From: a virus | Lineage: Duplodnaviria; Caudoviricetes | DNA length: 42,977 nt | IMG/VR virus record: IMGVR_UViG_3300044499_000026 | Span: 1 to 42,977 of that record | Strand: one strand, 5' to 3' | In this document: positions 1,032-42,878 of the stretch, piece by piece | Numbering within the stretch: the first letter of the stretch is position 1 | How the letters are laid out: each line of letters begins with the position of its first letter | The notes under the pieces: generated by a model | Database searches by the model: none | Told to the model about the DNA's origin: nothing | Seen by the model: the letters and a program-made list of their open reading frames with translations, nothing else | Position numbers and translations under genes: made by a program

Positions 1032-1418
1032 TTGACTCGATTCATCGCACTCCTCATCCCTCTACTGCTACTCAGTGCATGTGCGGAAGCCCCGCCACCG
1101 ATCTTCATGCAGGCCGAGATTGTAAAGAAAATTGTGATTGGGCAATCGACGGAGAATGACGTACAGGCCCTACTCGGACGACCCCAGCAGATCCAAACTT
1201 CTTTAGACCAGACAGGCGCTGCCACGCTCTGGGTCTATCAATACGTTCGGCGCGGGACCTACGAACTCGTGCCCGCTCTCCGTGAACAACTCAGCAAGCC
1301 CGCGCTGCATTCCATCCTCACGGTGCATTTCGATCAGGCGCATTTCGTGCAGAAAGTCGAACGGATGGATCAAGAGATCCGCACGCCAGAAGAGGGCGGT
1401 GTCCTGGTGCCGTTCTAA
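1032..1418 (+). CDS. Lipoprotein with SmpA/OmlA (BamE)-like domain; candidate lysogenic-conversion or superinfection-exclusion protein
   Basis: GGAGG RBS and TTG start; lipobox LSAC; pattern IxxGxSTxxDVxxLLGxP...WVYQY...LTVHFD typical of BamE/BLIP-like folds. Confidence 0.7.
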   Translation: MTRFIALLIPLLLLSACAEAPPPIFMQAEIVKKIVIGQSTENDVQALLGRPQQIQTSLDQTGAATLWVYQYVRRGTYELVPALREQLSKPALHSILTVHFDQAHFVQKVERMDQEIRTPEEGGVLVPF

Positions 1419-1451: not shown

Positions 1452-1664
1452 CTAGGCTGGCATCCTAGCGAACCACGCGGCCCACTCGGCCAGATTGTGC
1501 CGTTCCGCCTCACGACGCCAGGCCGCGTCCCTGGCCTGCTCGGCCCGGTTCTGGAGGATCGCGGCGTCAATGCGATTCCCACACTGGATACATTTCCACC
1601 ACCAGCAGGCACGTCGTCCAACGGGTTCGCGCAGCAAGAGACCATGGCAGCGCAGACAGGACAT
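1452..1664 (-). CDS. Small zinc-ribbon protein
   Basis: MSCLRCHGLL...WKCIQCGNRIDAAILQNR; two CxxC motifs. Confidence 0.75.
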   Translation of the reverse strand: MSCLRCHGLLLREPVGRRACWWWKCIQCGNRIDAAILQNRAEQARDAAWRREAERHNLAEWAAWFARMPA

Positions 1665-3457: not shown

Positions 3458-3730
3458 CTAGCTCCGTGGCGGATCGAGCTTCTCCCAGACCCGCTGCAAG
3501 TTGTCCCGGATGTGTGTGAACTCCTGGTCGTCATGGGTTTGGTGGAGTTCCATCCACGTCTCGCTTTTCCCCAGCCGCCCGTTGATCGTCGCCAGGTGCG
3601 TGGTGATGTCGCCTAACGCCTTCAAGGTTTGATCGTTCGTGGAGACCAAGCGCAGTACGCCCCACCAGACGACCACGCCGACACCCACGACCGAGAGCAA
3701 CACCAGGCCTTCGAGTAACGTGGGACTCAT
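3458..3730 (-). CDS. Single-TM coiled-coil protein (holin-like or accessory lysis protein)
   Basis: One long hydrophobic helix followed by a coiled coil; ATGA overlap with the upstream gene. Confidence 0.6.
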   Translation of the reverse strand: MSPTLLEGLVLLSVVGVGVVVWWGVLRLVSTNDQTLKALGDITTHLATINGRLGKSETWMELHQTHDDQEFTHIRDNLQRVWEKLDPPRS

Positions 3731-4485
3731 ACCGGCACCGCCTCAACGATGTGATTAAACTGTACATACCATCGTTTCCTCGCCTCACTCATTTTTCTGC
3801 GTGACTCATCTGATACTGGATGACCCATATGTGATGCACGCATTTTCTGACGTGTTTCCAGGGTGTGTTTCCGTCCCTTCATAGCAGAAACATATGTGGC
3901 CATTCGCTCGACAGAGAACTTCCTACCCTTTTGTACCGCACTTAACTTTGCTCGATGCTCAGGTGACAACGGCTTCCCTCGAAAGGCGACCCCGATGTTT
4001 GTTCGATGCCCAGGCGTGAGCTTCTTCCCAAGATTCGCCGCACGAAGTTTGGCGCGACATTCTTGAGAGATCACACGGCCTCTCCCAGCCTCGCTTATTT
4101 TGGCTCGCGTAGCAGCAGAGAAGATCCTTCCCTTCAGGGATGCACTGAATTTAGCGACGGCTTCAGCAGTCGGCTTATACCTGAATCCTGTGCGAGAATC
4201 GGCGCTCTTTGTGAGATTGAAGAGAGGAAGCTCGTTCTCGTGGTACGCATCAATGAATGCCTGTTCTTTCACGGTGAGGCTAGTCTCTTCACATTCGACC
4301 AACGGCTCAAAGATAAAGGCTACGTCACCATGCTTATTCCAAGAGGCTTGAAGATGCCTGTTTATATGATCGTTACGTTGAAGTGACCGCCGATGCCCGC
4401 GCAATCTGTGCTCAACGGTCACCGATGAACCAATGTACGTTCTGTTGGTTACGGTGTTCACGATTCTATAAATCCCTAAACTCAT
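3727..4485 (-). CDS. GIY-YIG homing endonuclease with NUMOD3-type repeats
   Basis: GIYRIVN...YIGSS motif followed by repeated KxSxExRxKxSxA units. Confidence 0.92.
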   Translation of the reverse strand: MSLGIYRIVNTVTNRTYIGSSVTVEHRLRGHRRSLQRNDHINRHLQASWNKHGDVAFIFEPLVECEETSLTVKEQAFIDAYHENELPLFNLTKSADSRTGFRYKPTAEAVAKFSASLKGRIFSAATRAKISEAGRGRVISQECRAKLRAANLGKKLTPGHRTNIGVAFRGKPLSPEHRAKLSAVQKGRKFSVERMATYVSAMKGRKHTLETRQKMRASHMGHPVSDESRRKMSEARKRWYVQFNHIVEAVPV

Positions 4486-5000
4486 ATGCTGACAGGCTCC
4501 ACTGTATGAGCAAATTGCGCGTGGATAATTCTCAAAGAACCTTCCCTGGTCAAGATCAGTTGCAATCCCAATTCGACCGGCAAGGTCTCAATCGTGTGCT
4601 GAATGCGCAGGACCGCCTGCTCGTCGATCTGTCCACTTTCAAAGCGTGGGCACTGGATGTCAAAGGCGTCCCCGCGACAATGCGGAAACTGCGCGAGCTG
4701 GCCGGCTTGCTGCGCGATCAAGGTATCGTAGAACCCTAGGGCCATGAGCTTCTCTGAGGATGTTCTCTCTGGATTCCGTGCCATCCATATCTTCAACTGC
4801 TGCACCATCTCCTGATTTCTATAGGTCTGGCCCAGCCAGTCCACCCCATAGCGGATCGTGTTCACCGCCATCGCCCGCGCCTGCCCCATCGCATCACGCC
4901 GTCCGGACGTAAAGATCACGTCAGGATGCTCGGCCAGGACCAGTTCGGCGGCCCGCCGAGCATTGGGGGAGAGGTGCATCTCATCGACGGTCAGCCCCAT
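4482..5000 (-). CDS. Putative endolysin, peptidase M15-like (LAS) zinc metallopeptidase
   Basis: TSGRR..Q motif, HxxGxAxD (HCRGDAFD) and distal His (IIHAQF); start re-called at 5000 (GGAG RBS); first gene after the tail module. Confidence 0.65.
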   Translation of the reverse strand: MGLTVDEMHLSPNARRAAELVLAEHPDVIFTSGRRDAMGQARAMAVNTIRYGVDWLGQTYRNQEMVQQLKIWMARNPERTSSEKLMALGFYDTLIAQQAGQLAQFPHCRGDAFDIQCPRFESGQIDEQAVLRIQHTIETLPVELGLQLILTREGSLRIIHAQFAHTVEPVSI

Positions 5001-10540: not shown

Positions 10541-10900
10541 TCAACCAGGAATACGCACGACGGCGAAACTGATCCCCGTCGTCGAACCCTTCAGGAACAC
10601 CTTCCCGCCGCTCTGCTCCCACCCTGGCTTACTGCCAAACCAGAAGGCAGCATATTCGCCGATCGTCATCGCGTAGGTCGTGATATCGCCCGTCCGATTT
10701 TGCCCATCGGCTACACTTTCCAGGGTGAAGGTCAGCGTCCCGGAGCTGGTCACGAGAAGCAGTTCTCGGCCGGTGAACGTGAATTCATCGAAGTTGACGG
10801 CATCGCACGCCGTAAAGACAAAATCCAGACTGTTCGCGGCCGGTTGGAGCGTGGGATACGGCCCCTTCGGGTTGATGATGGGTTGTGTCTGCCTTACCAT
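10541..10900 (-). CDS. Putative virion structural/decoration protein
   Basis: AGGAGG RBS; beta-rich 119 aa directly after the tail tube gene. Confidence 0.6.
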   Translation of the reverse strand: MVRQTQPIINPKGPYPTLQPAANSLDFVFTACDAVNFDEFTFTGRELLLVTSSGTLTFTLESVADGQNRTGDITTYAMTIGEYAAFWFGSKPGWEQSGGKVFLKGSTTGISFAVVRIPG

Positions 10901-11480: not shown

Positions 11481-11954
11481 TTACACCTGCGCGTAGGGGT
11501 TGGTCCGCACATGCTCATAGACCACTTCAAACCGCACCCCTTTCGAGAGGTGCGGCTCGACGGCTTCCAGCTCCGTTTCCAGATAGTTCGGCGGATCGGT
11601 CTGAATCGCCAAGCCGTCCCAGGTGCGGTTCTCTGCCACACACCGTTCGATATCGGCGACCAAGCTATTCAAGATCTCACCACCGCTCCGTGGATCCGCC
11701 AGTTCGTCGTGCCGGGTAATGGGCACCAGCACCACTTCCATGCGCCGACGGACTGAGGGATACACGGATTGGCTCAATTCCACGGTGCATTCCCCTTCCT
11801 TGACGACGATGGTCGGCATGACCGCCGTCTCGACCCCGCTCAGATGATACCGTTGCACGGAGGCAATCGTGTTGCTGTACCCGTTTGTTACCGTGATCTG
11901 GCCCAGGGCGGCCGTGATCTTCTTCACGATTTGCTCCTGGACGCTGTCAGCCAT
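11481..11954 (-). CDS. Tail terminator protein
   Basis: Position before the tail tube; SVQEQIV...ITVTNGY...LVADIERCV pattern. Confidence 0.75.
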   Translation of the reverse strand: MADSVQEQIVKKITAALGQITVTNGYSNTIASVQRYHLSGVETAVMPTIVVKEGECTVELSQSVYPSVRRRMEVVLVPITRHDELADPRSGGEILNSLVADIERCVAENRTWDGLAIQTDPPNYLETELEAVEPHLSKGVRFEVVYEHVRTNPYAQV

Positions 11955-11955
11955 C

Positions 11956-12465
11956 CTAGAATCTCCCCACGCTCGCCAGCCCCTTCCGCAACGTCACTTC
12001 CGTCGCGCGCTTGCCTGCGTCTCCCACCTTCCGCAGCATGGCCGGCGCTTCGGCGTGGACCTGCTGCCGAAACTTCAGTCGGGCCGGAATCACCACTTTG
12101 TCGGTCACGGCCACAATCGGCCCACGGCCCTTCGCATGCAGGTAGAGCTTGCCGCTTCCCTTCGCGGTGATCGTCATGCCCTTCTCATGGACGTGCAGAA
12201 TGCGGGAGATCCCGATCTTCCCGCCCAACCCTTGCAAACTCTTCCCACTTACAAACGTAAAGACATTCTTACCCTTCCCGAGCACACCCGCCTTGATCCC
12301 CGGAGGCCCATGGAGTTGCGTGCGAATAAAGTTCTTGCGGATTCGTTTCAAGCCCCGACTTAACTCCCCGCGCATAAACCGTAACTGCACCTTCGGCGTG
12401 TCCACGACGGCCTTGAGGAAGGCCGGCAAAGCTGGGATGGATAGCTGGACGAGGCCTGTTCCCAT
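11956..12465 (-). CDS. Tail completion / neck protein (basic)
   Basis: Very basic; HEKG...KVVIPAR motif; located before the tail terminator. Confidence 0.7.
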   Translation of the reverse strand: MGTGLVQLSIPALPAFLKAVVDTPKVQLRFMRGELSRGLKRIRKNFIRTQLHGPPGIKAGVLGKGKNVFTFVSGKSLQGLGGKIGISRILHVHEKGMTITAKGSGKLYLHAKGRGPIVAVTDKVVIPARLKFRQQVHAEAPAMLRKVGDAGKRATEVTLRKGLASVGRF

Positions 12466-12592: not shown

Positions 12593-12940
12593 CTAATTCG
12601 TCTGCACATCGGTCGGGACTGCCGGGGCCTTCGTATCGAAAGGGACGGCCACACTCAGCCCTGATTCGTTGCCTGAAGTGTCCACCGCCGTCACGGCGAC
12701 GGTGCCTTCGAGATTCACGGGCAACGTCCAGGACGGGCGCACTCCGATGGCTGTTTGCGGGATCGTGGCGGTCACGGTCGTCTTCGTTGGCACACAGCCA
12801 GCGGGCTGACAGGCGTAGACTTTATAACTCGCAACGTCTGCTTCTGCGTTCCGTGCCCAATTGGCGTTTGTGGCGGCACTAGCCCACCCGACACAACTCA
12901 AGCACAGGACCAGACTGCTGAGAATGATGATGCTCTTCAT
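12593..12940 (-). CDS. Secreted fibronectin type III-like protein
   Basis: Signal peptide ending GWASA; W..NAEADVASYKVY...AVTAVDTSGNESGLS...DTKAPAVP; start re-called at 12940 (AAGGAGG). Confidence 0.8.
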   Translation of the reverse strand: MKSIIILSSLVLCLSCVGWASAATNANWARNAEADVASYKVYACQPAGCVPTKTTVTATIPQTAIGVRPSWTLPVNLEGTVAVTAVDTSGNESGLSVAVPFDTKAPAVPTDVQTN

Positions 12941-13103
12941 GGATGTCCTCCTTGGTGAATTGATATCGACACACGGCACAGAGACCATTGCGAATCAGTT
13001 TCGGCACGGTCACGTCTCCGCAACAGGGGGCAATGACATGGTAGATCGACATGGCGCGTTTGGTAGCTGAGTCGCCACAGTGGCAGGTCGGGCAGTGGAT
13101 CAT
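12879..13103 (-). CDS. Small Cys/His-rich hypothetical protein
   Basis: ATGA coupling to the upstream gene; CPTC, CC and CAVC motifs; 3' end overlaps the Fn3 gene. Confidence 0.45.
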   Translation of the reverse strand: MIHCPTCHCGDSATKRAMSIYHVIAPCCGDVTVPKLIRNGLCAVCRYQFTKEDIHEEHHHSQQSGPVLELCRVG

Positions 13104-14440
13104 TGTATGCGCATCCCACCAGAGCCACGGAGGCCTCCAGCCAACACACTAGACGAGGCAACACCGCCAGTAAATCCGATCTGCGCACAGGAAACGGGCA
13201 CCCCGCTGCGAATATGCACGTTGTCTTCGTACCGGAACGTCACTTGAATCGTAGGTGGCTCTCCAAGGCCTTGATTAGCATTGGCATAATTATTCCACGT
13301 AATTCCGTCTACGCCCCCTGCTGTTCCGAATGACAGTTGATTAAAGTTGATCCCGGAAATGTCCGTGATAAGGGTTTCGGTTGAGGTGCCCGGCTTCTGT
13401 ATCCACTGTCGAATCCGCCCGTTACTCATCGTGGTGAAATCCAGGTCGGCACGAATACACGCCCAGGTACCGAGTGGCCAATCCGTCGATTGCACATAGC
13501 TGGCGGTGCCGTGGTATTGGACATAGACGTTATCGAACGTACAATTGATTGTGCCGGAGGTCGTGACAGCACCAGCAATGGCGCTCGGACAGGACCCACT
13601 AACCAAAAAGTAACCGTAAAAAGGGAACGAGTCGTTTGGCCCCGCTTCCCCAAACCCTGAAATGGCGTCTCGGATCGCCCCACCGTTGCCGGACCATTCG
13701 TTCCACTTCCATGCGCTTTCGGTGATGCGCGAGGTATGCAGATTCGTGGGCAGGGCCACTGCGTAGGTGATCCCGATATGTTTGGTGGCCGTCCAAAACT
13801 TATCACCCAGGATCGAGCCAGTAGATCCCACCGCTACCCGATGCGTGAGGCTCGCGTTCCCGTCGAAGATGCCATTGCCACCGTCCGCAGTATTGGTGGG
13901 CACGGTCAACGTGCCTACCTCAGCAGTAAAATCGGAGTCTTGCGTATAAATCCCCATTACAGGCGTATAGGCGTTCGCCGTCCACAGATTCGCCGCCTCC
14001 CACGTTTTCATGCCATGACAGAGTGCTTCACCACAGACCACCCCAAGAGTAGGACTCGTTGGCTGCCCACCTGCCCAAATGGCATTACTCAAGCCATTGC
14101 CATAGAGATGATTCCAATACGAGTTGTAGCCACGATTCGGCGCACCGCCCCAACCCGTTTCATCGTACCAGGGGCCATAGGCTGCGGTTCCTCCACTCCC
14201 ACGGGTCGAAGCGGTTGTTACCCCGTACCCTGTATTCTGTCGCATGGTCGGGGCTTCAAAATCTTCGCAGACGAGAAGGAGTGGATCAAAAAAGACCCCC
14301 GCAGCGGGCACCACTTTGTCGCAGTAACAATTCGTGCCAAAAGTGCAGGGGGCGGCGCTCGCCTCACCTGCCATTAGAAACAGCCAGAGACAACTACCAA
14401 TTCCAATCAATGCAAGTTTATAGCGAAAGATGGTGGTCAT
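13100..14440 (-). CDS. Secreted beta-sandwich protein (ConA-like lectin / polysaccharide-lyase-like), 446 aa
   Basis: Signal peptide ending GEASA; CEDFE, GTWACI and YEDNVHI motifs; aromatic-rich; 10 Cys in the mature part. Confidence 0.6.
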   Translation of the reverse strand: MTTIFRYKLALIGIGSCLWLFLMAGEASAAPCTFGTNCYCDKVVPAAGVFFDPLLLVCEDFEAPTMRQNTGYGVTTASTRGSGGTAAYGPWYDETGWGGAPNRGYNSYWNHLYGNGLSNAIWAGGQPTSPTLGVVCGEALCHGMKTWEAANLWTANAYTPVMGIYTQDSDFTAEVGTLTVPTNTADGGNGIFDGNASLTHRVAVGSTGSILGDKFWTATKHIGITYAVALPTNLHTSRITESAWKWNEWSGNGGAIRDAISGFGEAGPNDSFPFYGYFLVSGSCPSAIAGAVTTSGTINCTFDNVYVQYHGTASYVQSTDWPLGTWACIRADLDFTTMSNGRIRQWIQKPGTSTETLITDISGINFNQLSFGTAGGVDGITWNNYANANQGLGEPPTIQVTFRYEDNVHIRSGVPVSCAQIGFTGGVASSSVLAGGLRGSGGMRIQ

Positions 14441-15180
14441 TGAGATTGCCTCTTCCGAAAGCCAAACGTCTCAGCACCCCCGCCCGCCGCCGCTTTCAGT
14501 GCCACGCCACTGATGGCCCAGGCAGTGATCGCCGAGATGTCGTCCGTCCAACTCATCGTCACTGACGGTGCTCCTGGCTCAGTGCTCGACCCCAACCGAT
14601 TAAAATTCGATGCGAAACCTATAGCGACTCGTTGCGTCTGCCCCGCCCCCGCTTGTAGCACGGCGGCGCTGTCTATCAGAGTCGCGAACAGGCAATCCAC
14701 GATCAAGTCGTCTGTGGCCCCACTCACATTCACCGTAGGGAGTGCGGACGCCCCAGTGGCGTTCGCGCGTGTTCCCACGGGCGTCGTTTGATGCACTCCT
14801 GAAGCCGTCAGCGCGAAGGCCGCCCACTCATCTGCGGCACTCAAGGTCACTACCACATTGTTTGCTCCTGTGGCGGGAGCAATCAATCGATAGAAACTCA
14901 CGCGTAGGCCGTTGCCATCAAAATCCGCCGTGCCGATAGGCGTAGCCAGGAAATCCACTCCGGCGTAGGTGCCCACGTCTACGGTTGTGACGGTAGAGTG
15001 CACCACGCCCACGGCCATGGCGCGATTCGCGTTGGTCGTCGTCGTGTGGCTCCACGTCTGGGTGGTGTCCACTTGAGAGCCACTGTTGGTGACGGCGTCG
15101 AAGACCACCTCCGCCGCCCAGCTTTGCAGGGGCAGGAGGAGCGTGAGAAGCAGGTTGAGGAGCAGAACGAGTCGTTTCAT
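14437..15180 (-). CDS. Secreted beta-sandwich virion-type protein, 247 aa
   Basis: Signal peptide ending QSWA; FDA...TWSHT...APATGANNVVVT...GVHQTTPV pattern resembling phage accessory-fibre domains. Confidence 0.65.
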   Translation of the reverse strand: MKRLVLLLNLLLTLLLPLQSWAAEVVFDAVTNSGSQVDTTQTWSHTTTTNANRAMAVGVVHSTVTTVDVGTYAGVDFLATPIGTADFDGNGLRVSFYRLIAPATGANNVVVTLSAADEWAAFALTASGVHQTTPVGTRANATGASALPTVNVSGATDDLIVDCLFATLIDSAAVLQAGAGQTQRVAIGFASNFNRLGSSTEPGAPSVTMSWTDDISAITAWAISGVALKAAAGGGAETFGFRKRQSQ

Positions 15181-18170
15181 TAGATCGCCTCCCTTATCAC
15201 TATCTCCACCCCGATCAACCGTGCTGTTGCGGCTAAGGTGTCAGAAGCGTGGGCAGAATCCCGCTGGATCTTCAGGTGCAGAAGTTCGCCAGCGGCACAT
15301 CCTGTAACCGTGACCGTCGTGATTGCAGCATCGTTAGTTTGATTCGTGGTCCCCTTGGCCGTATCCGTGATAGTCGAGGCGGTATTGAACGCCGGATCAT
15401 CTGTCTCTGCATCAGCAACGCAGATGGTCGAGAGTTGCCAGACGACATCACCAGTGGTCGCTGTAGTCAGCCATTTGATATTCGCATCGACGGTACCAGT
15501 CCAGGTCGAGGGAAGTTTGTGCGTGAGCTGCGCAGACAAGTTAGCAGAGTCAGCGAAATCGAGGACGCCCTTGATTGTGTTCGTACCCGCGATAACTGCT
15601 GCAACTGCGCCACTAGCTGCAGGGATATCCCAGATTGGGCCTGCGGTGGCACCATTGGCACCAGCAGCTGGATACCAATACCGTCGTGGGACCGTGATGA
15701 CGTTGCCCGTGCCTTCAGCGTCGAGTGTCGTCCCGGTCAGCGTTTTCGTCCCATCCGTTGTCGTGAAGCCGCCCGCGCCGTTCGTGGCATTGCCCAATCC
15801 TGTAGCGACCCCAGTTCCAAACGCGGTGATGCCGGTTCCACCATTGGCTACCGGGAGCGTTCCTGTCACACCCGTCGTTAACGGTAATCCGGTCAGATTC
15901 GTGGCCACGCCACTCGTGGGAGTGCCCAGAAGCGGTGTCACCAAGGTCGGGCTGGTGTTCATCACGAATGTCGTGCCCGTCCCAGTTTGTGCCGCCACGG
16001 CGGTTGCGTTCCCAGTTGAGGTGATCGGCCCAGTGAGGTTGGCATTGGTAACCGCTGCCCCAGCAGATGTGCCATAGGCCGCGTATTGGAGGGCCGGGGT
16101 CGTTGCGTTATCACAGTACTGCAGCGGCGTCGTATGCACCTGCATTTTGCCGTTCGTGCTGGCCCCACAAGTGAGCGCACCAGCAGCCAAGAAGGCTTGT
16201 TCTGTAGAATCTGTTGTGAGCGTGACAGTCGCATTCTCAGCCCCGCCACCAGAGGAAGTGATTCCTGCACCGCCCGTGATCCCGGCAACATAAGCGCCAG
16301 TCGTACCAGTTGCCAAGGCCACTGCATCGGCATTCACGCCACTGGCGGTAATTGTGCCTGATCCTGAGGTGATGAGTGAACCACCCGTGCCTACGACCAT
16401 CGCAGCAGTGGTATTCGTTCCGCCGGTGATCGTATCGAACGACGGCGTGCCCCCAGTGGTATCAAGATCCGTCGCACTACCGTTTGTACACTTCTTGAGT
16501 TTGTTCTCGGACAAGTCCGCAAAGATGTTGTAATTCCCAGCAGCACAGGTAGGATTGGTGTCCGATTCGTCAAATTCAATCCCAAGGTTATCGGTGACCA
16601 ATTGCCCGGTGAGCGTCCCTCCGACCAGGGGCAAGTAATTGCTAACGGTGATCGTGTCGGGAATCTGCGCATCTGTCGCGGACCCAGAGAGGTTCGAGAA
16701 TGCGGGTTGCGCGCATTCCCCAACCCCAGTGGCACTGACGCCGAGCGCGAAGTTGTTCCCGGAACAATTTCCGCCGTTCGCCGCTAAGGCCGTCGCCGTG
16801 GCAATGTTCCCTCCCGTGGTGGCGTAGATGACCACGGACCCTGCATTCTCGTGGCTTTTCAACAAGGAATCAGCGGAATCAACATATAGATTGTGTTCTC
16901 CGGCGGCTACTCCGGCACCTGGTGCGGTACCTTCAAGCAGCGTTACAACGCCGACCCCAGCAGTCCCCGCTACAAACCCTCCCGCACAGGTCAGTTGATC
17001 GGAGTCATTGATCGTGCAACCGCTGGCTTTGAGTGTGGATCCCCCCGTGCTATCAGCACGAGGCACGGCATTGTTCGTGGTGCCGACGGTGCCGCCGATC
17101 CCGGCCCCTGTCGTGTCCAGATCACTGGACACGCCATTGGTGCATTTCTTCAACTTGGCTTCTGAGGTATCCGCGAAGATATTATAGTTCCCCGCTGCAC
17201 AGGTTGGGTTGACATCACCCTCCGTAAGCTCGATGCCAAGGTTGTCCGTAGTCAGCAAGCCCGTCATCGTGCCACCGGCTAAGGGGAGATAATTTGATAC
17301 GGTGATGGTGTCCGGGACATCGGCATCTGCAATGGCCCCGCAGGTTAGATTCCCACTGGCGGCAATGGCGTTGGCAAATTGATTCGCTGCACAGTCTGTG
17401 GGGTTGGCAGCCAGGGCTGTGGCCGTCGCAATGTTTCCGTTGGTCAAGGCCACAGTACCCGTTGAGGCGGGCAGAGACAAGGTGACGGTGCCCAGCGCGC
17501 CCGTGACCGGTGCCACGGTGATTGTGCCACTCGTGGCATTCTTGAAATCAACTGAGCCGACAGCAGTCCCGGCGACCCCTACTGTCACCTTGCTGACCCC
17601 ATCCGTGAGAATCCCTGCCACCACTTTGGTATCCACGGTACCGGCCCCCAGCACCACTGAATTAGCGGTGAGGTCGCCCCCAACGTTGGTGACAGTCCCA
17701 GAGCCCGCCGCAACGGTACAGCTTTCGACGGCTCCTGACGCATCGACCCCGAGTGGGTATTGCCCTGCCGCACAATTCGCGCCATTCGCAGCCAAGGCGG
17801 TCGCGGTGGTAGCTGGTCCGCCCTCCGTGGTACTTGCGGCATACCCGCCCGTGGTATCCGTGCCCAATGCCACGCTGTCCACTTTGACATTGGCGGTGAC
17901 CACGTTCGCGGTATTGACAAAATCAATATCGCCTGCCGAATCGAAATTGGGATCAACGACGGCCACGCTATCGACCGACACTGCATCCCCACCAGCCGAC
18001 CCCGGACACGCTTGCCAGGTGCCGGTGCCTGGCGCGGTATTGAGCACGCAATCATTCACGCTGCCGCCAGCCGGGAGGCCACTCCCGCCACCCTGAATCA
18101 TCGCACTTTCCACAGGGGCCACGAAGAGGAGACACACACTGAGGAACCCTCCGATCCAGAGTCGTGTCAT
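15180..18170 (-). CDS. Large fibre-like protein with signal peptide (996 aa)
   Basis: Signal peptide ending PVESA; Gly/Thr/Ala-rich; fibre motifs YLPLAGGTMTG and GVTGTLPVANGGTG; internal repeats; globular C-terminal domain. Confidence 0.8.
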   Translation of the reverse strand: MTRLWIGGFLSVCLLFVAPVESAMIQGGGSGLPAGGSVNDCVLNTAPGTGTWQACPGSAGGDAVSVDSVAVVDPNFDSAGDIDFVNTANVVTANVKVDSVALGTDTTGGYAASTTEGGPATTATALAANGANCAAGQYPLGVDASGAVESCTVAAGSGTVTNVGGDLTANSVVLGAGTVDTKVVAGILTDGVSKVTVGVAGTAVGSVDFKNATSGTITVAPVTGALGTVTLSLPASTGTVALTNGNIATATALAANPTDCAANQFANAIAASGNLTCGAIADADVPDTITVSNYLPLAGGTMTGLLTTDNLGIELTEGDVNPTCAAGNYNIFADTSEAKLKKCTNGVSSDLDTTGAGIGGTVGTTNNAVPRADSTGGSTLKASGCTINDSDQLTCAGGFVAGTAGVGVVTLLEGTAPGAGVAAGEHNLYVDSADSLLKSHENAGSVVIYATTGGNIATATALAANGGNCSGNNFALGVSATGVGECAQPAFSNLSGSATDAQIPDTITVSNYLPLVGGTLTGQLVTDNLGIEFDESDTNPTCAAGNYNIFADLSENKLKKCTNGSATDLDTTGGTPSFDTITGGTNTTAAMVVGTGGSLITSGSGTITASGVNADAVALATGTTGAYVAGITGGAGITSSGGGAENATVTLTTDSTEQAFLAAGALTCGASTNGKMQVHTTPLQYCDNATTPALQYAAYGTSAGAAVTNANLTGPITSTGNATAVAAQTGTGTTFVMNTSPTLVTPLLGTPTSGVATNLTGLPLTTGVTGTLPVANGGTGITAFGTGVATGLGNATNGAGGFTTTDGTKTLTGTTLDAEGTGNVITVPRRYWYPAAGANGATAGPIWDIPAASGAVAAVIAGTNTIKGVLDFADSANLSAQLTHKLPSTWTGTVDANIKWLTTATTGDVVWQLSTICVADAETDDPAFNTASTITDTAKGTTNQTNDAAITTVTVTGCAAGELLHLKIQRDSAHASDTLAATARLIGVEIVIREAI
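16453..17316 (-). repeat. Intragenic duplication of a ~70-aa module (about 17107-17316 and 16453-16662)
   Basis: PDTITVSNYLPL.GGT.TG.L.TDNLGIE...NPTCAAGNYNIFAD.SE.KLKKCTNG...DLDTTG occurs twice with diverged codons. Confidence 0.9.
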
Positions 18171-18505
18171 AATGCTTCCTCCGTGCAGGACACCGTCACA
18201 TTCGCCCCCTCCGAGATCATGTAGACGGCGCCGCGTGCTTTGATTTCGATGGACGTGCCCGCCGGGAGGCGCTGCCCCGTCGTCGCCGTCACCGCACTAT
18301 CGCCCCAGCGGACGTGGACCGAGGCATGGTTGTTCGTGCAGGAGAGGGCCATCCGGAAGGTGTTTTCCACCGCCACCAAGGTCGCCGTCCCCGTCACGGT
18401 TACATCGATCTTCGGGGTCACCACAAAGTACTTCTCGTCGGCCCAGGCCTGGCCTAGCCCGATGAGCAACGCCAGGACGACCAGGCTCCATCGTAGTGTG
18501 GACAT
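18167..18505 (-). CDS. Secreted small jelly-roll-like protein (candidate capsid spike/fibre base)
   Basis: Signal peptide ending GQAWA; V..TATL.....R..L...NN....V..G...VT..TG..LPAG pattern; AGGAGG RBS. Confidence 0.65.
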   Translation of the reverse strand: MSTLRWSLVVLALLIGLGQAWADEKYFVVTPKIDVTVTGTATLVAVENTFRMALSCTNNHASVHVRWGDSAVTATTGQRLPAGTSIEIKARGAVYMISEGANVTVSCTEEAL

Positions 18506-18514
18506 GTGTACCTC

Positions 18515-18865
18515 CTAGCTCTGCACCAGCACGAGAAAGGCGCCGCCGCCGCCGGCCACGCCGTCGTCTTCTTTCAGCACTGTCTGCACGATGAAGTCGG
18601 TCTCCGCCGCATCACTGAGGTTCTTCTTGAACAACACATGATCTTTATGTTCGGCGATCGCGGTCACCCCATCGGTGGCATCGTTCGCGATCAGCAACTG
18701 GCGTGTGTTCACGCCGTATCCGTGGCCGTTCGTCTGCTGCACCTGATGTGAGGGGCGATCCCGATCGACGACCACGCGAATGACCTTCGCCACCCCTCCT
18801 GCGGGCGTATAGGTGACGAGCTCCCCGCCCAGTTGAGTGATCAGGTTGACGGTGTCAGTCGCCAT
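18515..18865 (-). CDS. Head-tail joining / head closure protein
   Basis: GELVTYTPAGG...I.VVVDR motif (gpFII-like); start re-called at 18865. Confidence 0.7.
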   Translation of the reverse strand: MATDTVNLITQLGGELVTYTPAGGVAKVIRVVVDRDRPSHQVQQTNGHGYGVNTRQLLIANDATDGVTAIAEHKDHVLFKKNLSDAAETDFIVQTVLKEDDGVAGGGGAFLVLVQS

Positions 18866-19172: not shown

Positions 19173-20129
19173 TTAGCTCAACGTGGCACGAATCGCGTGC
19201 TGCCACATGCCGTAGCCGACGTTGGTGATCTTCTTCACCCCGTAGAGGTGCTCGTTCTCCTTGAATTCGTGCTCCGAGCCCTCGGCAATCGCGCTGATGG
19301 AGATGCCTTCTTCGATTTGCTCAATGAAGGGCTTGGTGCGCCCATCGGCACGGAACACCGCGAACTGATCCGTGGCCGTGAGGCGCGGATTGACCGCCAC
19401 CTGTAACGTCATGCCCATTTTCATCAGCGTGTTATCGACAGATCCGGAACCCGTGTTCAGTTGATTCGCCGTGACCGCCGCTTGCGCGCTCCCCCACATA
19501 TTCACCGGCGTCATAATCAGGAACTGCCGCGCCAACTCATTGATCGGCTCCCCCTGATCGTCTTTGAAAGTGAAGAAATGCTGCAGGACTGACAGAATGG
19601 CGTCCGCCATTTCTTTCGCCGTGGGGACTGCGGGGTCCGCAACGTTGAGAACCGCAAAATCCCCCACGGCGACATCGTTCTTGTGCGTGCCGCTGTCGCC
19701 TTCGGCGTGGTCGGTATCGAAGAAGAACTGCCCGTCGTAGGCGAGTCCGTTCGTTGCGGTCCCGCCGTTGCGGATCAGCGTGGAAATGAGGCTCATCGGA
19801 TGCGCCGCCACCCGATCGGCCATTTCTCGAATCCGCAGCAGGATCTGCGCGGTTTTATCGCGCCGGAGATCGTCCACGGCAATCTTCAACGTCGCTTCGA
19901 ACGTTTTGTTCGTGATGGTCAGGCCGTTCTCGCGCAAGCCCTTCGCGAGCCGTCCGCCGATCCATTCCCGGACCGCCGGCGTGGCGCCCAGCCATTTGTA
20001 GGTTTCACTCTCCTGATCGGAGATGAACCCCATGGCCAACTGTCCCATCCAGGTGCTCCCGATCGCCTGCCCCAAGGTCTCGTAGAAGGTGCCGATAATC
20101 GCCCGGCTCCCCAGTCCTGATCCACCCAT
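19173..20129 (-). CDS. Major capsid protein, Mu gpT-like
   Basis: ETYKWLG..P.VREW.G.R...I.NKTFEAT...YDGQFFFDTDH...GYGMWQHA motifs. Confidence 0.92.
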   Translation of the reverse strand: MGGSGLGSRAIIGTFYETLGQAIGSTWMGQLAMGFISDQESETYKWLGATPAVREWIGGRLAKGLRENGLTITNKTFEATLKIAVDDLRRDKTAQILLRIREMADRVAAHPMSLISTLIRNGGTATNGLAYDGQFFFDTDHAEGDSGTHKNDVAVGDFAVLNVADPAVPTAKEMADAILSVLQHFFTFKDDQGEPINELARQFLIMTPVNMWGSAQAAVTANQLNTGSGSVDNTLMKMGMTLQVAVNPRLTATDQFAVFRADGRTKPFIEQIEEGISISAIAEGSEHEFKENEHLYGVKKITNVGYGMWQHAIRATLS

Positions 20130-20186
20130 GGTTGCGCCCTCCTTGTCCGTTCAGTGAACTGTTGATTCGTCCTCGTGCGGTCAGGA

Positions 20187-20960
20187 TTAGGCTTCCGCCG
20201 TCCAAATCCCTTTGATACTCGCCGAATAGCCGTCGGCATCGCCCAGAAAGATCCGAGCACTGTCGCCCCGGCGCTGCGTGGCTTTCGTGAGTAACAAATC
20301 CTTGTTATCCACGGCGGCGAGATCGGCCGCGCGGATATTGTCCACTGCCGCCGGATCGACCTTGATCTGCGTCGTGCCGAAGGCGTCGATGGCCACGATG
20401 AGGATGTCGTTGAGTCCGTCGGCAATCGCCGGCAGCGTGAGCGCATCGCCATCGGCGGCGGCGGTGCAGAAGAACGCCTTGCCGCAATCCTGCGCATCGA
20501 AGGTCTTGACCCCGGCCAGCGTTTCCCGAATGGGCCATGCGCCGTAGGGATCGGTGAGGCCGGGCGCGTCGAATCGGACGACGACGACACCGGCGGACAC
20601 GAACCGATGCGCGAATCCGATGAAAACACCGGCCGTCGGCACGAAGGAGAACGTGTCGTCGTCACTCGCATACACCGGCTGTCCCAGATCGGTGATCACG
20701 GCACCGGTCACCGGCAGCTGCACCTTGCCGCTCTGCAACACCCTCACGTTCTTCGCTGCGGCGGCGCCGAGCGAGTTGTCGCACCGAGTCATTGCGAAGC
20801 CGGCAAAGCGATCCGCAGCGTTCAACGGGCGGGCATGGCCAGTGGCATCCACCACGCCGACGGCCGCGCCCTCAAAGATGATGTCAGCAGCAATCACGGG
20901 AATGTCGTTCGTCATCCCGAGTTCCTGTGCTCGGGGTTTGTCTACGGCCAATGTCGCCAT
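20187..20960 (-). CDS. Capsid cement/decoration protein with C-terminal extension
   Basis: PVIAADIIFEGAAV...DNSLGAA...DLGQPVYASDDDTF; lies between scaffold and capsid genes. Confidence 0.8.
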   Translation of the reverse strand: MATLAVDKPRAQELGMTNDIPVIAADIIFEGAAVGVVDATGHARPLNAADRFAGFAMTRCDNSLGAAAAKNVRVLQSGKVQLPVTGAVITDLGQPVYASDDDTFSFVPTAGVFIGFAHRFVSAGVVVVRFDAPGLTDPYGAWPIRETLAGVKTFDAQDCGKAFFCTAAADGDALTLPAIADGLNDILIVAIDAFGTTQIKVDPAAVDNIRAADLAAVDNKDLLLTKATQRRGDSARIFLGDADGYSASIKGIWTAEA

Positions 20961-31609: not shown

Positions 31610-33409
31610 TTAGTTCAAGAACAACACCGGCTGTGCCACGACCAGCCCAGGGCTGGGATAATCAATCAGTTTCAATGACCGCAGCCGGCCCAGATTGTTA
31701 AAATAGCCGCCTGACGTGGGACGTTGCCCAGATTGCTCAGCCAGGATCTCTTTGCTGATCGGATGGGGGTAGCATTCGATCAAGGATTTCAGAATGCAAC
31801 TCTGGGCCGTGGGTAACTTGCCATAGAGCATCTGATGCAACGCTTCGCTCGTCGTGGGGACGTCCACCGGTTCCGCCTGGGCGCGCCCAATAGCGGTCAG
31901 GCTCACCGTACCAGCCTTGGGGTACGCGATCAGACCCGCTGACCGGAGTGATCCCAAATTATTGAAATATCCCCCGCTTGTGGGGCGCGCATCACTCATA
32001 ATGGCCAGTTGCGTCTTGTCCATCTCGGCCAGGCCGATCCCTTCGGCCCACACCAACGCGTTCAGAATGCGCTGCCGGGATCGGCTCAGATCCACATGGC
32101 CGTCAATCGTCGATATCGTTGTGCGAATCTGTGGTACCGGACGTTTAATTATATCGTCAAGATGATGGCTCACCGCACTGGCTAGATTGGCGCGAGTGCG
32201 TAGCGCAGGAGCAGGTTGTTGTGCTGACGACACCGATTTGATCGCCTTCAATAGCGAGTCCGCCACCTGATTCAGGTTACTCCAAAAGATCGACACGGCA
32301 TGGCCGTGTCGTTCGGCTTCCCGCGCCAGCTTGGTGCAGAAGGTGTCGAGTTGGGCCAGCTGCTTGCCTTTGAAGACTGGGACTTCTTTGATCTGCACCT
32401 CGGCCTTCGGTGTCGCTACAGTGTGGGCCTGTTGCAGCTCGCGCTGTAATTCCGCAATCTTTCGCCTGAGTTCTTTTGGGTCCTCCGCCTTAGCCTTCTC
32501 GATCGTGGCAGACATTTGCATTTTGAGCGCGTCGAGATCCACATCGGCCACCTGCTTTGGCGCGACTGGTTTCATGCCTGGCTTTGGGGTGGCCCCTGAA
32601 TCGAAGGTCTCAATCGGTAGGATATGCACACGCTTGAAAATACCGTCCGTCGTCGGCCAGCCAGGAGACCAGAACCAGGCATCTCCGATCGGCAGTGATG
32701 GCAGCGACGCCATCAGTGTTTTGCATTGCGCTTGAGTACCGTGCACATCGATCCAGGCTTTCATCGCCGAGAGGTCTTGAGGCGCGATCGTGCGCAGCGC
32801 AACTAAGACTTGCGCTTGCGTGAGCACATTTTTATTCAACACGGCAGAACGCTGGGACACCAGTACGCATCCGATGCCGCGTTGTCCCCCTCGTCGGACA
32901 ATATCCTCAGCCGCGCCAAGCATCCGTTCTTCTCCATGCTGCGGCTTCTGTGGCGCGATCGCATCAGCTTCGTCAATCACCAGCATCATGGGCGTGCGGT
33001 AGATCTCGCGCGCCTTGAGTCGATAGAGATTCTCCAGGAAGGCCGTCATGAAGGTCGCGACTTCACTCTTCCGGAACGGCGACAGATCCAGCAAGACACT
33101 GACGCGCTCCTCGACGACGAGCTTGGCTACCACTTCACCACTATTCGGCTCCAATCGCACATCGCCGCGCTCGCCACCCAAAATCACGATCGACAGACCG
33201 GGTGCTTTCCCGTCCGCTGCGGACCGGATCCCCCATTGATCGCCTTTTGGATCCACCATCACGATTTGCTGACCAGCCTTGAAAAGTTGTTCAATGAGTC
33301 GCCGCATCGTATAGCTCTTCCCAGCGCGACGTTTCGCGAGGATCGCAATGGTCTGGGTCACCACGTCGAGCGGCAACGACAGATTGTCAGCGAGTCGCAG
33401 CTTAGTCAT
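31610..33409 (-). CDS. HerA/FtsK-like (DUF87) P-loop ATPase with duplicated C-terminal winged-helix-like domains
   Basis: Walker A AKRRAGKS, DPKG, Walker B LVIDEAD, RRGGQRG, SQR; RPTSGGYFNNLGxLRS twice. Confidence 0.88.
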   Translation of the reverse strand: MTKLRLADNLSLPLDVVTQTIAILAKRRAGKSYTMRRLIEQLFKAGQQIVMVDPKGDQWGIRSAADGKAPGLSIVILGGERGDVRLEPNSGEVVAKLVVEERVSVLLDLSPFRKSEVATFMTAFLENLYRLKAREIYRTPMMLVIDEADAIAPQKPQHGEERMLGAAEDIVRRGGQRGIGCVLVSQRSAVLNKNVLTQAQVLVALRTIAPQDLSAMKAWIDVHGTQAQCKTLMASLPSLPIGDAWFWSPGWPTTDGIFKRVHILPIETFDSGATPKPGMKPVAPKQVADVDLDALKMQMSATIEKAKAEDPKELRRKIAELQRELQQAHTVATPKAEVQIKEVPVFKGKQLAQLDTFCTKLAREAERHGHAVSIFWSNLNQVADSLLKAIKSVSSAQQPAPALRTRANLASAVSHHLDDIIKRPVPQIRTTISTIDGHVDLSRSRQRILNALVWAEGIGLAEMDKTQLAIMSDARPTSGGYFNNLGSLRSAGLIAYPKAGTVSLTAIGRAQAEPVDVPTTSEALHQMLYGKLPTAQSCILKSLIECYPHPISKEILAEQSGQRPTSGGYFNNLGRLRSLKLIDYPSPGLVVAQPVLFLN

Positions 33410-42852: not shown

Positions 42853-42878
42853 CCTGACGGTGGATAGTCTGAGTCAGA
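42853..42878 (+). repeat. att-associated direct repeat, copy 2 (phage-host junction)
   Basis: Identical to 1-26; here the palindrome extends to AGTCTGA-G-TCAGACT (42866-42880). Confidence 0.85.

Follow-up and report, generated by a model that had tools for sequence, protein, structure and literature searches.

The assembly of tailed-phage particles is generally placed entirely in the cytoplasm, and in T4 and P22 extracts finished particles can take up fibres afterwards. The RcGTA head spike consists of a base pentamer, Rcc01079, and a fibre, Rcc01080 (PMC7296036), and the spike protein P1 of PM2 (PDB 2vve, 2w0c) forms homopentamers at the fivefold vertices (PMC5656799). Some virion proteins of phages 7-7-1 and Milano contain disulfides (PMC12796354, PMC10811340). 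In a study of soil prophages, leader-bearing carbohydrate-active enzymes (CAZymes) are treated as secreted enzymes and structural genes are filtered out (PMC13507307), and signal peptides are mentioned in PMC6811365 in the methods alone. No description of exported virion appendages in tailed phages was found in literature searches, which covered listings and the openings of abstracts, mostly outside subscription journals. Here, we describe a block of signal-peptide-bearing genes in the head-tail operon of a virus of the Caudoviricetes, IMG/VR record IMGVR_UViG_3300044499_000026, which was analysed as one contig of 42,977 bases (the window).

The block is genuine and conserved, and what is known of tailed-phage assembly does not account for it. 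As reported in an initial annotation of this DNA, five co-oriented genes lie on the minus strand within the operon, between a head-closure and a probable tail-completion gene, and the first four are coupled by stop/start overlaps (ATGA, TAATG and ATGA). They encode, in order, a putative spike base of 112 amino acids (aa; 18167..18505), with a 22-aa leader and a 90-aa jelly-roll; a Thr/Ala/Gly-rich long fibre of 996 aa (15180..18170); two putative tip proteins, of 247 aa (14437..15180) and 446 aa (13100..14440); and a small exported-type beta protein of 115 aa (12593..12940), which has one cysteine pair and an AAGGAGG ribosome site. The tally of five holds for genes with leaders, but a sixth, leaderless gene (12879..13103, minus strand) also belongs to the block; it encodes a Cys-rich 74-aa protein with CxxC motifs and is ATGA-coupled behind the 446-aa gene. 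The reading that we favour, and regard as probable, is that the block specifies a capsid spike that matures in the periplasm and docks after lysis.

All five N-termini show Sec/signal peptidase I features, with a short basic n-region, a hydrophobic h-region and small residues at -3 and -1. Leaders were called with our own crude von Heijne-type rule (an uncharged hydrophobic 8-mer near the start and small residues at -3/-1; not SignalP), which fires on 4-6% of interior 44-mers (65/1466; 187/3117). In the window, it fires on 5/5 block genes and on 0/16 other virion and packaging genes, including those for capsid, cement, portal, tube and the 235-aa tail fibre, in agreement with the leaders first assigned to the five proteins and with their absence from tail fibre, capsid and tube. 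No membrane segment or anchor was found in any of the five mature chains, and a loose lipobox (IGSC) in the 446-aa leader has no counterpart in the other block leaders. Export of the block proteins is, from these sequence features, very likely.

Signal-peptide conservation in relatives, which had been proposed as a check, was borne out for base and fibre. The base homologues (best 120 of 126 matches) were searched with the full protein, possibly favouring leader-bearing ones; 109/120 of those listed passed the rule, and a hydrophobic leader was visible by eye in all of the misses except one 86-aa entry. The fibre homologues (best 120 of 266 matches) were searched with the last 147 residues only, so that their count is free of leader bias, the homologues having been found by the C-terminal knob alone; again, 109/120 of those listed passed, while six of the misses looked cut at the N-terminus, four had a leader that the rule missed and one was leaderless. 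The leaders drift in sequence, yet keep an h-region and an A-x-A type site in about nine of ten homologues. An Ala after the cleavage site is invariant in 21/21 aligned fibre rows and is the first mature residue in homologues, suggesting that the fibre is probably cut between VES and AMIQG, one residue earlier than the position after VESA originally given. The 247-aa family is mostly leaderless (94/120 listed homologues), and its leaderless members begin with Met at the same register.

A recount of the cysteines in the five mature proteins agreed with the initial figures of 2, 18, 1, 10 and 2 in operon order, whereas the capsid, tube and tape measure of the window have none. The fibre cysteines form nine close pairs (41-55, 133-151, 260-277, 324-343, 385-395, 469-486, 542-561, 668-686 and 917-958), and successive fibre cysteines alternate between short gaps (median 18) and long gaps (median 70). 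Mature fibres, 548-1582 aa in length, have an even cysteine count in 105/109 cases, or 33/35 after clustering with one sequence per cluster; parity falls to 71/109 even once leader cysteines are counted. Pairs also co-vary, in that knob cysteines 838/859 are lost jointly in the same 2/121 sequences, one of them from the window phage, and 818/825 are gained jointly in 15. Across the fetched loci, with base homologues excluded, even counts were found in 49/54 leader-bearing and 51/122 leaderless open reading frames, and within the 247-aa family in 21/26 members with a leader and 50/94 without. C56 and C107, the two cysteines of the base, are invariant and are likely to bond to each other inside one chain. 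Conservation, even counts and the co-variation of pairs give good support to disulfide folding of the exported proteins, and it would appear that modules of cytoplasmic virion proteins here gained leaders and cysteine pairs together.

The base is predicted to be a small jelly-roll (model pLDDT 93). Among solved structures, the PM2 spike P1 matches it best (Z 11.0, root-mean-square deviation (rmsd) 2.9, 86 residues aligned, 15% identity), ahead of cupins (Z 8.8) and Ena pili (Z 8.7, rmsd 3.8, with 94 residues aligned, some of them in the leader). The nearest Atlas clusters are viral, the predicted neighbours being mostly uncharacterised phage proteins of 83-140 aa, and the family matches are two families of unknown function. 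The mature base sequence had no match among cultured-phage records and the fibre had one. The fibre is predicted to end in a knob (residues 815-996; 15183..15728, minus strand) with 67-88% identity in 120 listed homologues. Its model (pLDDT 94) resembles CBM36 (Z 13.5, rmsd 2.4, 123 aligned) and more broadly the CBM6/35/36, galactose-binding-domain-like jelly-rolls, as well as domains of phage and giant-virus fibre proteins. The knob has a net charge of -8, and the two C-terminal tags described below are basic.

PHROGs, Pfam and NCBIfam named none of the five proteins, apart from a match of the 247-aa protein to phrog_553, minor tail protein (E 4e-6). PDB sequence searches with the base, the knob and the 115-aa protein returned nothing significant, the best E values for the last being 0.33 and 0.41; this protein also had no family match in PHROGs, Pfam or NCBIfam, and its Fn3-like label is one that we presume from a motif only. 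The 446-aa protein had Atlas rows for Polysacc_lyase/PL14 (PL14/PL20-like; score 0.92, 151 shared features) and a template modelling score of about 0.5 with a low-confidence model, so that a polysaccharide-lyase-like jelly-roll is only a lead. One cluster neighbouring this protein is mostly Nitrospirota, again only a lead.

The base family was found in nine viral and 31 metagenome loci, several of them duplicates and two of them weak matches that were dropped, and the knob family in 32 viral loci. Siphoviruses, and podoviruses whose capsids are unrelated, share the order base, fibre, tip of about 250 aa and large Cys-rich tip. The block is not confined to the head-tail locus and takes varying positions: after tail-fibre genes (often, in podoviruses), after capsid genes or before the terminase gene. 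Tip genes are also exchanged. A close relative, L002, whose base is 98% identical, keeps the base, fibre, small and 115-aa genes and has other genes in both tip slots, while a strain contig from run X2 joins 15180 to 13124, placing the fibre stop against the final codons of tag 2, an exact swap of the tip slot. Not every knob fibre goes with a base: in P0238 and P0239, a tail-fibre adaptor domain (phrog_1640, E 6e-33) comes after the leader. N-terminal domains of some knob fibres gave no match to the base profile (best E 0.31), and fusion with a base is not supported. Upstream of other knob fibres lie leaderless, beta-rich open reading frames of 93-118 aa (L045 1214-1495, L057 1916-2206, L062 8631-8987 and L063 3326-3622) without a PHROG match, which may be cytoplasmic bases of another family. 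In four relatives, a membrane protein gene adjoins the base gene (L022 5128-6201, L024 840-1928, L028 412-1473 and L030 1445-2536), and three of the four products match the O-antigen ligase family Wzy_C below cut-off; such a protein could glycosylate the exported Thr/Ser-rich fibres. The gene is absent from the block of the window.

Three short motifs recur at chain ends. The first, at the predicted mature N-terminus of the fibre (residues 23-31; 18078..18104, minus strand), is an A-x-I-x-G strand followed by a Gly linker; in the form A-x-[IMV]-x-G plus linker it was present at the predicted fibre cut in 23/28 base loci and in 0/20 leader-bearing knob fibres without a base; the N-terminal domains of these fibres are different, some being tail-fibre adaptors placed after the leader. 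The second, tag 1, ends the 247-aa protein behind its minor-tail-protein-like domain and a Gly linker (about 14440-14475, minus strand) and is basic, of the F-x-x-R-R type. With its linker, it ends the gene after the knob in 14/32 loci, compared with 5/285 other open reading frames, and a related RRxVxV tail does so in four further loci of the 32, compared with 0/285. The third, tag 2 (GG-x4-GG-x-R-I-Q), ends the 446-aa protein (about 13103-13141, minus strand) and was found in 8/32 knob loci and 2/285 other open reading frames. The tags are retained while passengers change, unrelated passengers including a beta-helix in L002. On the knob tree, tag 1 is clustered (three changes, against a shuffled mean of 10.1) and the RRxVxV variant is not (159/500 shuffles as low); the clustering is not taken as co-evolution because kinship explains it. 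Interactions of the tags are plausible from these patterns.

Two tag-1 proteins (L002 6214-7782 and L046 10712-11734), one of them a beta-helix with ten cysteines, are leaderless and stand directly behind an exported-type knob fibre. In L002, the tag-1 ATG directly follows the fibre stop and leaves no room for a leader. If tag 1 binds the knob, such partners would meet an exported knob only at lysis; they are the best argument for assembly at that stage, one that rests on a putative tag-knob binding.

The sequences themselves show the leaders and how well these are kept, the pairing of cysteines, the order of the genes, the tags at chain ends and the swapping of tip genes; export, binding and virion attachment are what we infer from them. 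In the mechanism proposed, five late genes would encode a modular host-attachment spike exported by Sec, with the leader cut and the disulfides formed during folding in the periplasm. Leader removal would free the A-x-I-x-G strand at the new N-terminus of the fibre, and this strand would bind the base, which is envisaged to occupy capsid vertices in oligomeric, probably pentameric, form. The basic tag of the 247-aa tip would be held by the acidic knob, and the lyase-like 446-aa tip would be attached by the second tag. The tips would bind or cut host surface glycans and form a variable host-range slot. Once lysis brings the two compartments together, the whole spike would attach to completed capsids and serve as a long first-contact arm. 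Attachment to the virion is likely, the link being provided by the coupling of the genes inside the head-tail operon and by a base fold nearest to that of a fivefold-vertex spike. The viral Atlas clusters nearest to the base, the knob that ends a leaderless tail-region protein of EBPR siphovirus 2, the knob fibres with tail-fibre adaptors and the lack of membrane anchors in the mature chains speak for this link as well. The interpretation offered at the outset is supported in part: export and disulfide folding are backed by conservation, parity and pair co-variation, and the suggested roles fit the predicted folds, while docking on the capsid goes a step beyond them. None of the contrary outcomes anticipated in the initial annotation was encountered among those that could be examined.

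Several points weigh against this interpretation. The leaders were called by a crude rule rather than by SignalP, and the tag patterns were written post hoc, after the sequences had been viewed, in relatives that are non-independent. The fibres of the window and of L002 fail the strict N-terminal pattern because Ser precedes Ala, and in 14/32 knob loci the fetched DNA contains no tag 1 of either form. The single cysteine of the 247-aa protein makes its count odd. The disulfide-linked virions of 7-7-1 and Milano mean that paired cysteines alone are no proof of periplasmic folding, and it is the leaders that carry the claim. The base fold is common, being shared with cupins and Ena, which makes a vertex role only a lead; the pairing of the base with unrelated capsids is not what would obviously be expected of a capsid-specific binder. 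Finally, the predicted knob fold is of a sugar-binding module type, such that the knob may itself be a lectin.

The exported parts could instead reside on the particle in a form other than a vertex spike, either attached at the neck or tail or as an Ena-like filament of the 112-aa jelly-roll tipped by the fibre, an arrangement that we consider unlikely. It would accommodate the Ena1 and Ena3 spore-appendage subunits, which are the top Foldseek matches of the base (Z 8.7 and 7.4), the existence of knob fibres with tail adaptors and the frequent position of the podovirus block after a tail-fibre gene. However, PM2 P1 scores higher (Z 11.0), the invariant base cysteines probably pair within one chain, and the block also occurs after capsid genes or before the terminase gene.

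Equally improbable in our view is a secreted or cell-surface kit of adhesin and depolymerase that acts on the infected cell, the capsule or a biofilm and never enters the virion. This is the usual meaning of signal peptides; the comparable MAT fibres of Bdellovibrio are secreted phage-like trimers (PMC10769870), leaders are reported on 5% of soil-prophage CAZymes (PMC13507307), the 446-aa protein is lyase-like, and the O-antigen-ligase-like membrane gene stands beside the base in four relatives (three matches being below cut-off). Nevertheless, the genes are coupled to those of the virion and the scans revealed no promoter within the block, the mature chains lack an anchor and the sole lipobox is the loose one in the 446-aa leader. 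In addition, the leaderless tagged partners of L002 and L046 would be unable to join an exported complex in the living cell, tail-adaptor domains occur behind leaders, and leaderless relatives are found among tail genes. The cell-surface or matrix adhesin raised as an alternative in the initial annotation is weakened by the same virion-gene coupling, leaderless tagged partners and want of an anchor. Least credible, and hardly to be expected, is that the leaders are uncleaved tethers or are bypassed by internal starts, with cytoplasmic folding and oxidation after lysis, as the disulfide-rich virions without reported export might suggest (PMC12796354, PMC10811340, in the text available), since the leaders diverge yet keep their h-region and A-x-A type sites, replace the start Met in register in the 247-aa family and are the setting in which alone the parity bias appears.

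Around the block, the flanking genes are leaderless and lie on the minus strand. The head-closure gene (18515..18865) matches Pfam Phage_attach at E 0.0035, below cut-off, and the Mu gpT-like major capsid and cement-like proteins (19173..20960) are assigned by family matches. The probable tail-completion gene (11956-12465) is recognised by position alone, with no family, and the tail terminator gene (11481-11954) by phrog_5078 (E 1.7e-5). The cement-like protein (20187-20960) continues past the family match with a further C-terminal domain, about 125 aa long, to which the base or the 115-aa protein might be anchored on the capsid side. The sixth gene of the block shows 16 synonymous and 6 non-synonymous codon changes against L002 and is on this evidence a real gene under purifying selection, with homologues at the equivalent place in L002 and L043, the latter a remote one; its product is possibly a zinc-binding regulator or chaperone. 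The 3' end of this gene overlaps the leader of the 115-aa gene by 62 nucleotides. A 131-aa version of the 115-aa gene, starting at an upstream ATG in the open reading frame listing, was discarded on account of a strain variant without that ATG. Promoter and terminator scans gave results at chance level, with no promoter inside the block, and RNA run X13 yielded only short contigs in which no transcription of the block was seen. An assembly artefact was rejected, as run X2 contigs match 13047-18082 in three pieces with zero differing letters and L002 keeps the shared frames. All 15 of the listed runs with sequence words of the block are sediment metagenomes; six contain half of the words or more, and one is possibly the source of the window.

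Overall, the window represents a lambda-like temperate siphovirus with genes for an integrase, RecT, RusA, ParB, gpA-type terminase, lambda portal, Mu gpT-like capsid, cement-like protein, tube, tape measure and hub. A 26-nucleotide exact repeat at 1-26 and 42853-42878, beside the integrase gene, is not a full terminal overlap and is perhaps an att or integrase arm site. Genes for small lipobox proteins (1686-1955 and 1970-2197) end the late operon; spanins are suggested, and with them a diderm host. Further host hints are a BamE-domain lipoprotein moron (1032-1418, plus strand) and a 70-aa CxxC protein (1452-1664, minus strand), which we assume to be akin to small Nitrospira proteins. In species genomes scanned with the profile of the base, no locus proved usable. 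On the minus strand, a GIY-YIG/NUMOD3 homing endonuclease gene (3727-4485) is located between a probable endolysin gene (4482-5000, no family match) and holin-like genes, an unannotated 119-aa gene with a strong ribosome site (10541-10900) between those for tail tube and chaperone, and a HerA/DUF87-type ATPase gene (31610-33409) beside the ParB-like gene in the early region.

Passage of the appendages through Sec would imply an extracytoplasmic step of virion assembly, during or after lysis. In that case, host Dsb and possibly glycosylation systems would shape phage host range, and many phage genes whose signal peptide has led to their being classed as secreted auxiliary enzymes may instead encode virion tips. 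The tags, if real, would amount to a natural plug-in display of disulfide-bonded domains on phage particles. A wider generalisation is put forward tentatively and falls, in our judgement, somewhat short of an even proposition: that many uncultured tailed phages split morphogenesis, with capsid and tail built in the cytoplasm and a plug-and-play spike exported, oxidised and perhaps glycosylated in the periplasm, armed by signal peptidase and snapped on at lysis via three tags, any passenger, exported or not, being hung on the virion by a ten-residue tail.

The folds in the block are of known kinds, and it is the export route and the tag grammar that would be new. The RcGTA spike shares with it a small jelly-roll base gene beside the fibre gene, an extreme N-terminal fibre peptide as the proposed anchor and a glycan-binding far end. 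In RcGTA, one fibre chain provides an alternating Ile/Leu-Gly star, a repeat of the (I/L)-G type that the fibre N-terminus lacks; here, an A-x-I-x-G strand with a Gly linker would be exposed only after leader removal. The available text on RcGTA names no export signal (PMC7296036), and the present block has two extra tagged tips. Rcc01079 is not among the fold matches listed for the base, although absence from such a list does not exclude homology. PM2, in contrast to the window phage, is tailless and membrane-containing, and its P1 is one chain of 335 aa with its own receptor domain. The MAT fibres of Bdellovibrio resemble the fibre of the block in being phage-like mosaics of about 1000 aa with a signal peptide and variable tips, but are cell-encoded surface adhesins with a conserved 130-aa beta domain behind the leader, according to the text available (PMC10769870), whereas the block consists of late genes in phage contigs, its fibre begins with a very short motif and ends in a conserved knob, and its tagged tips are proteins of their own. 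EBPR siphovirus 2 gp74 (JF412297), a 388-aa uncharacterised protein of the tail region, ends in the same knob family (E 8e-25), but unlike the fibre is leaderless and has one cysteine and none at the knob cysteine columns. The Agrobacterium phages 7-7-1 and Milano are, like the window phage, tailed phages with disulfides, and 11 vertices of the 7-7-1 particle bear one fibre each. In these two phages, the capsid and tail cores are cross-linked and export goes unmentioned in the text available (PMC12796354, PMC10811340), whereas here leaders are found only on the appendage genes.

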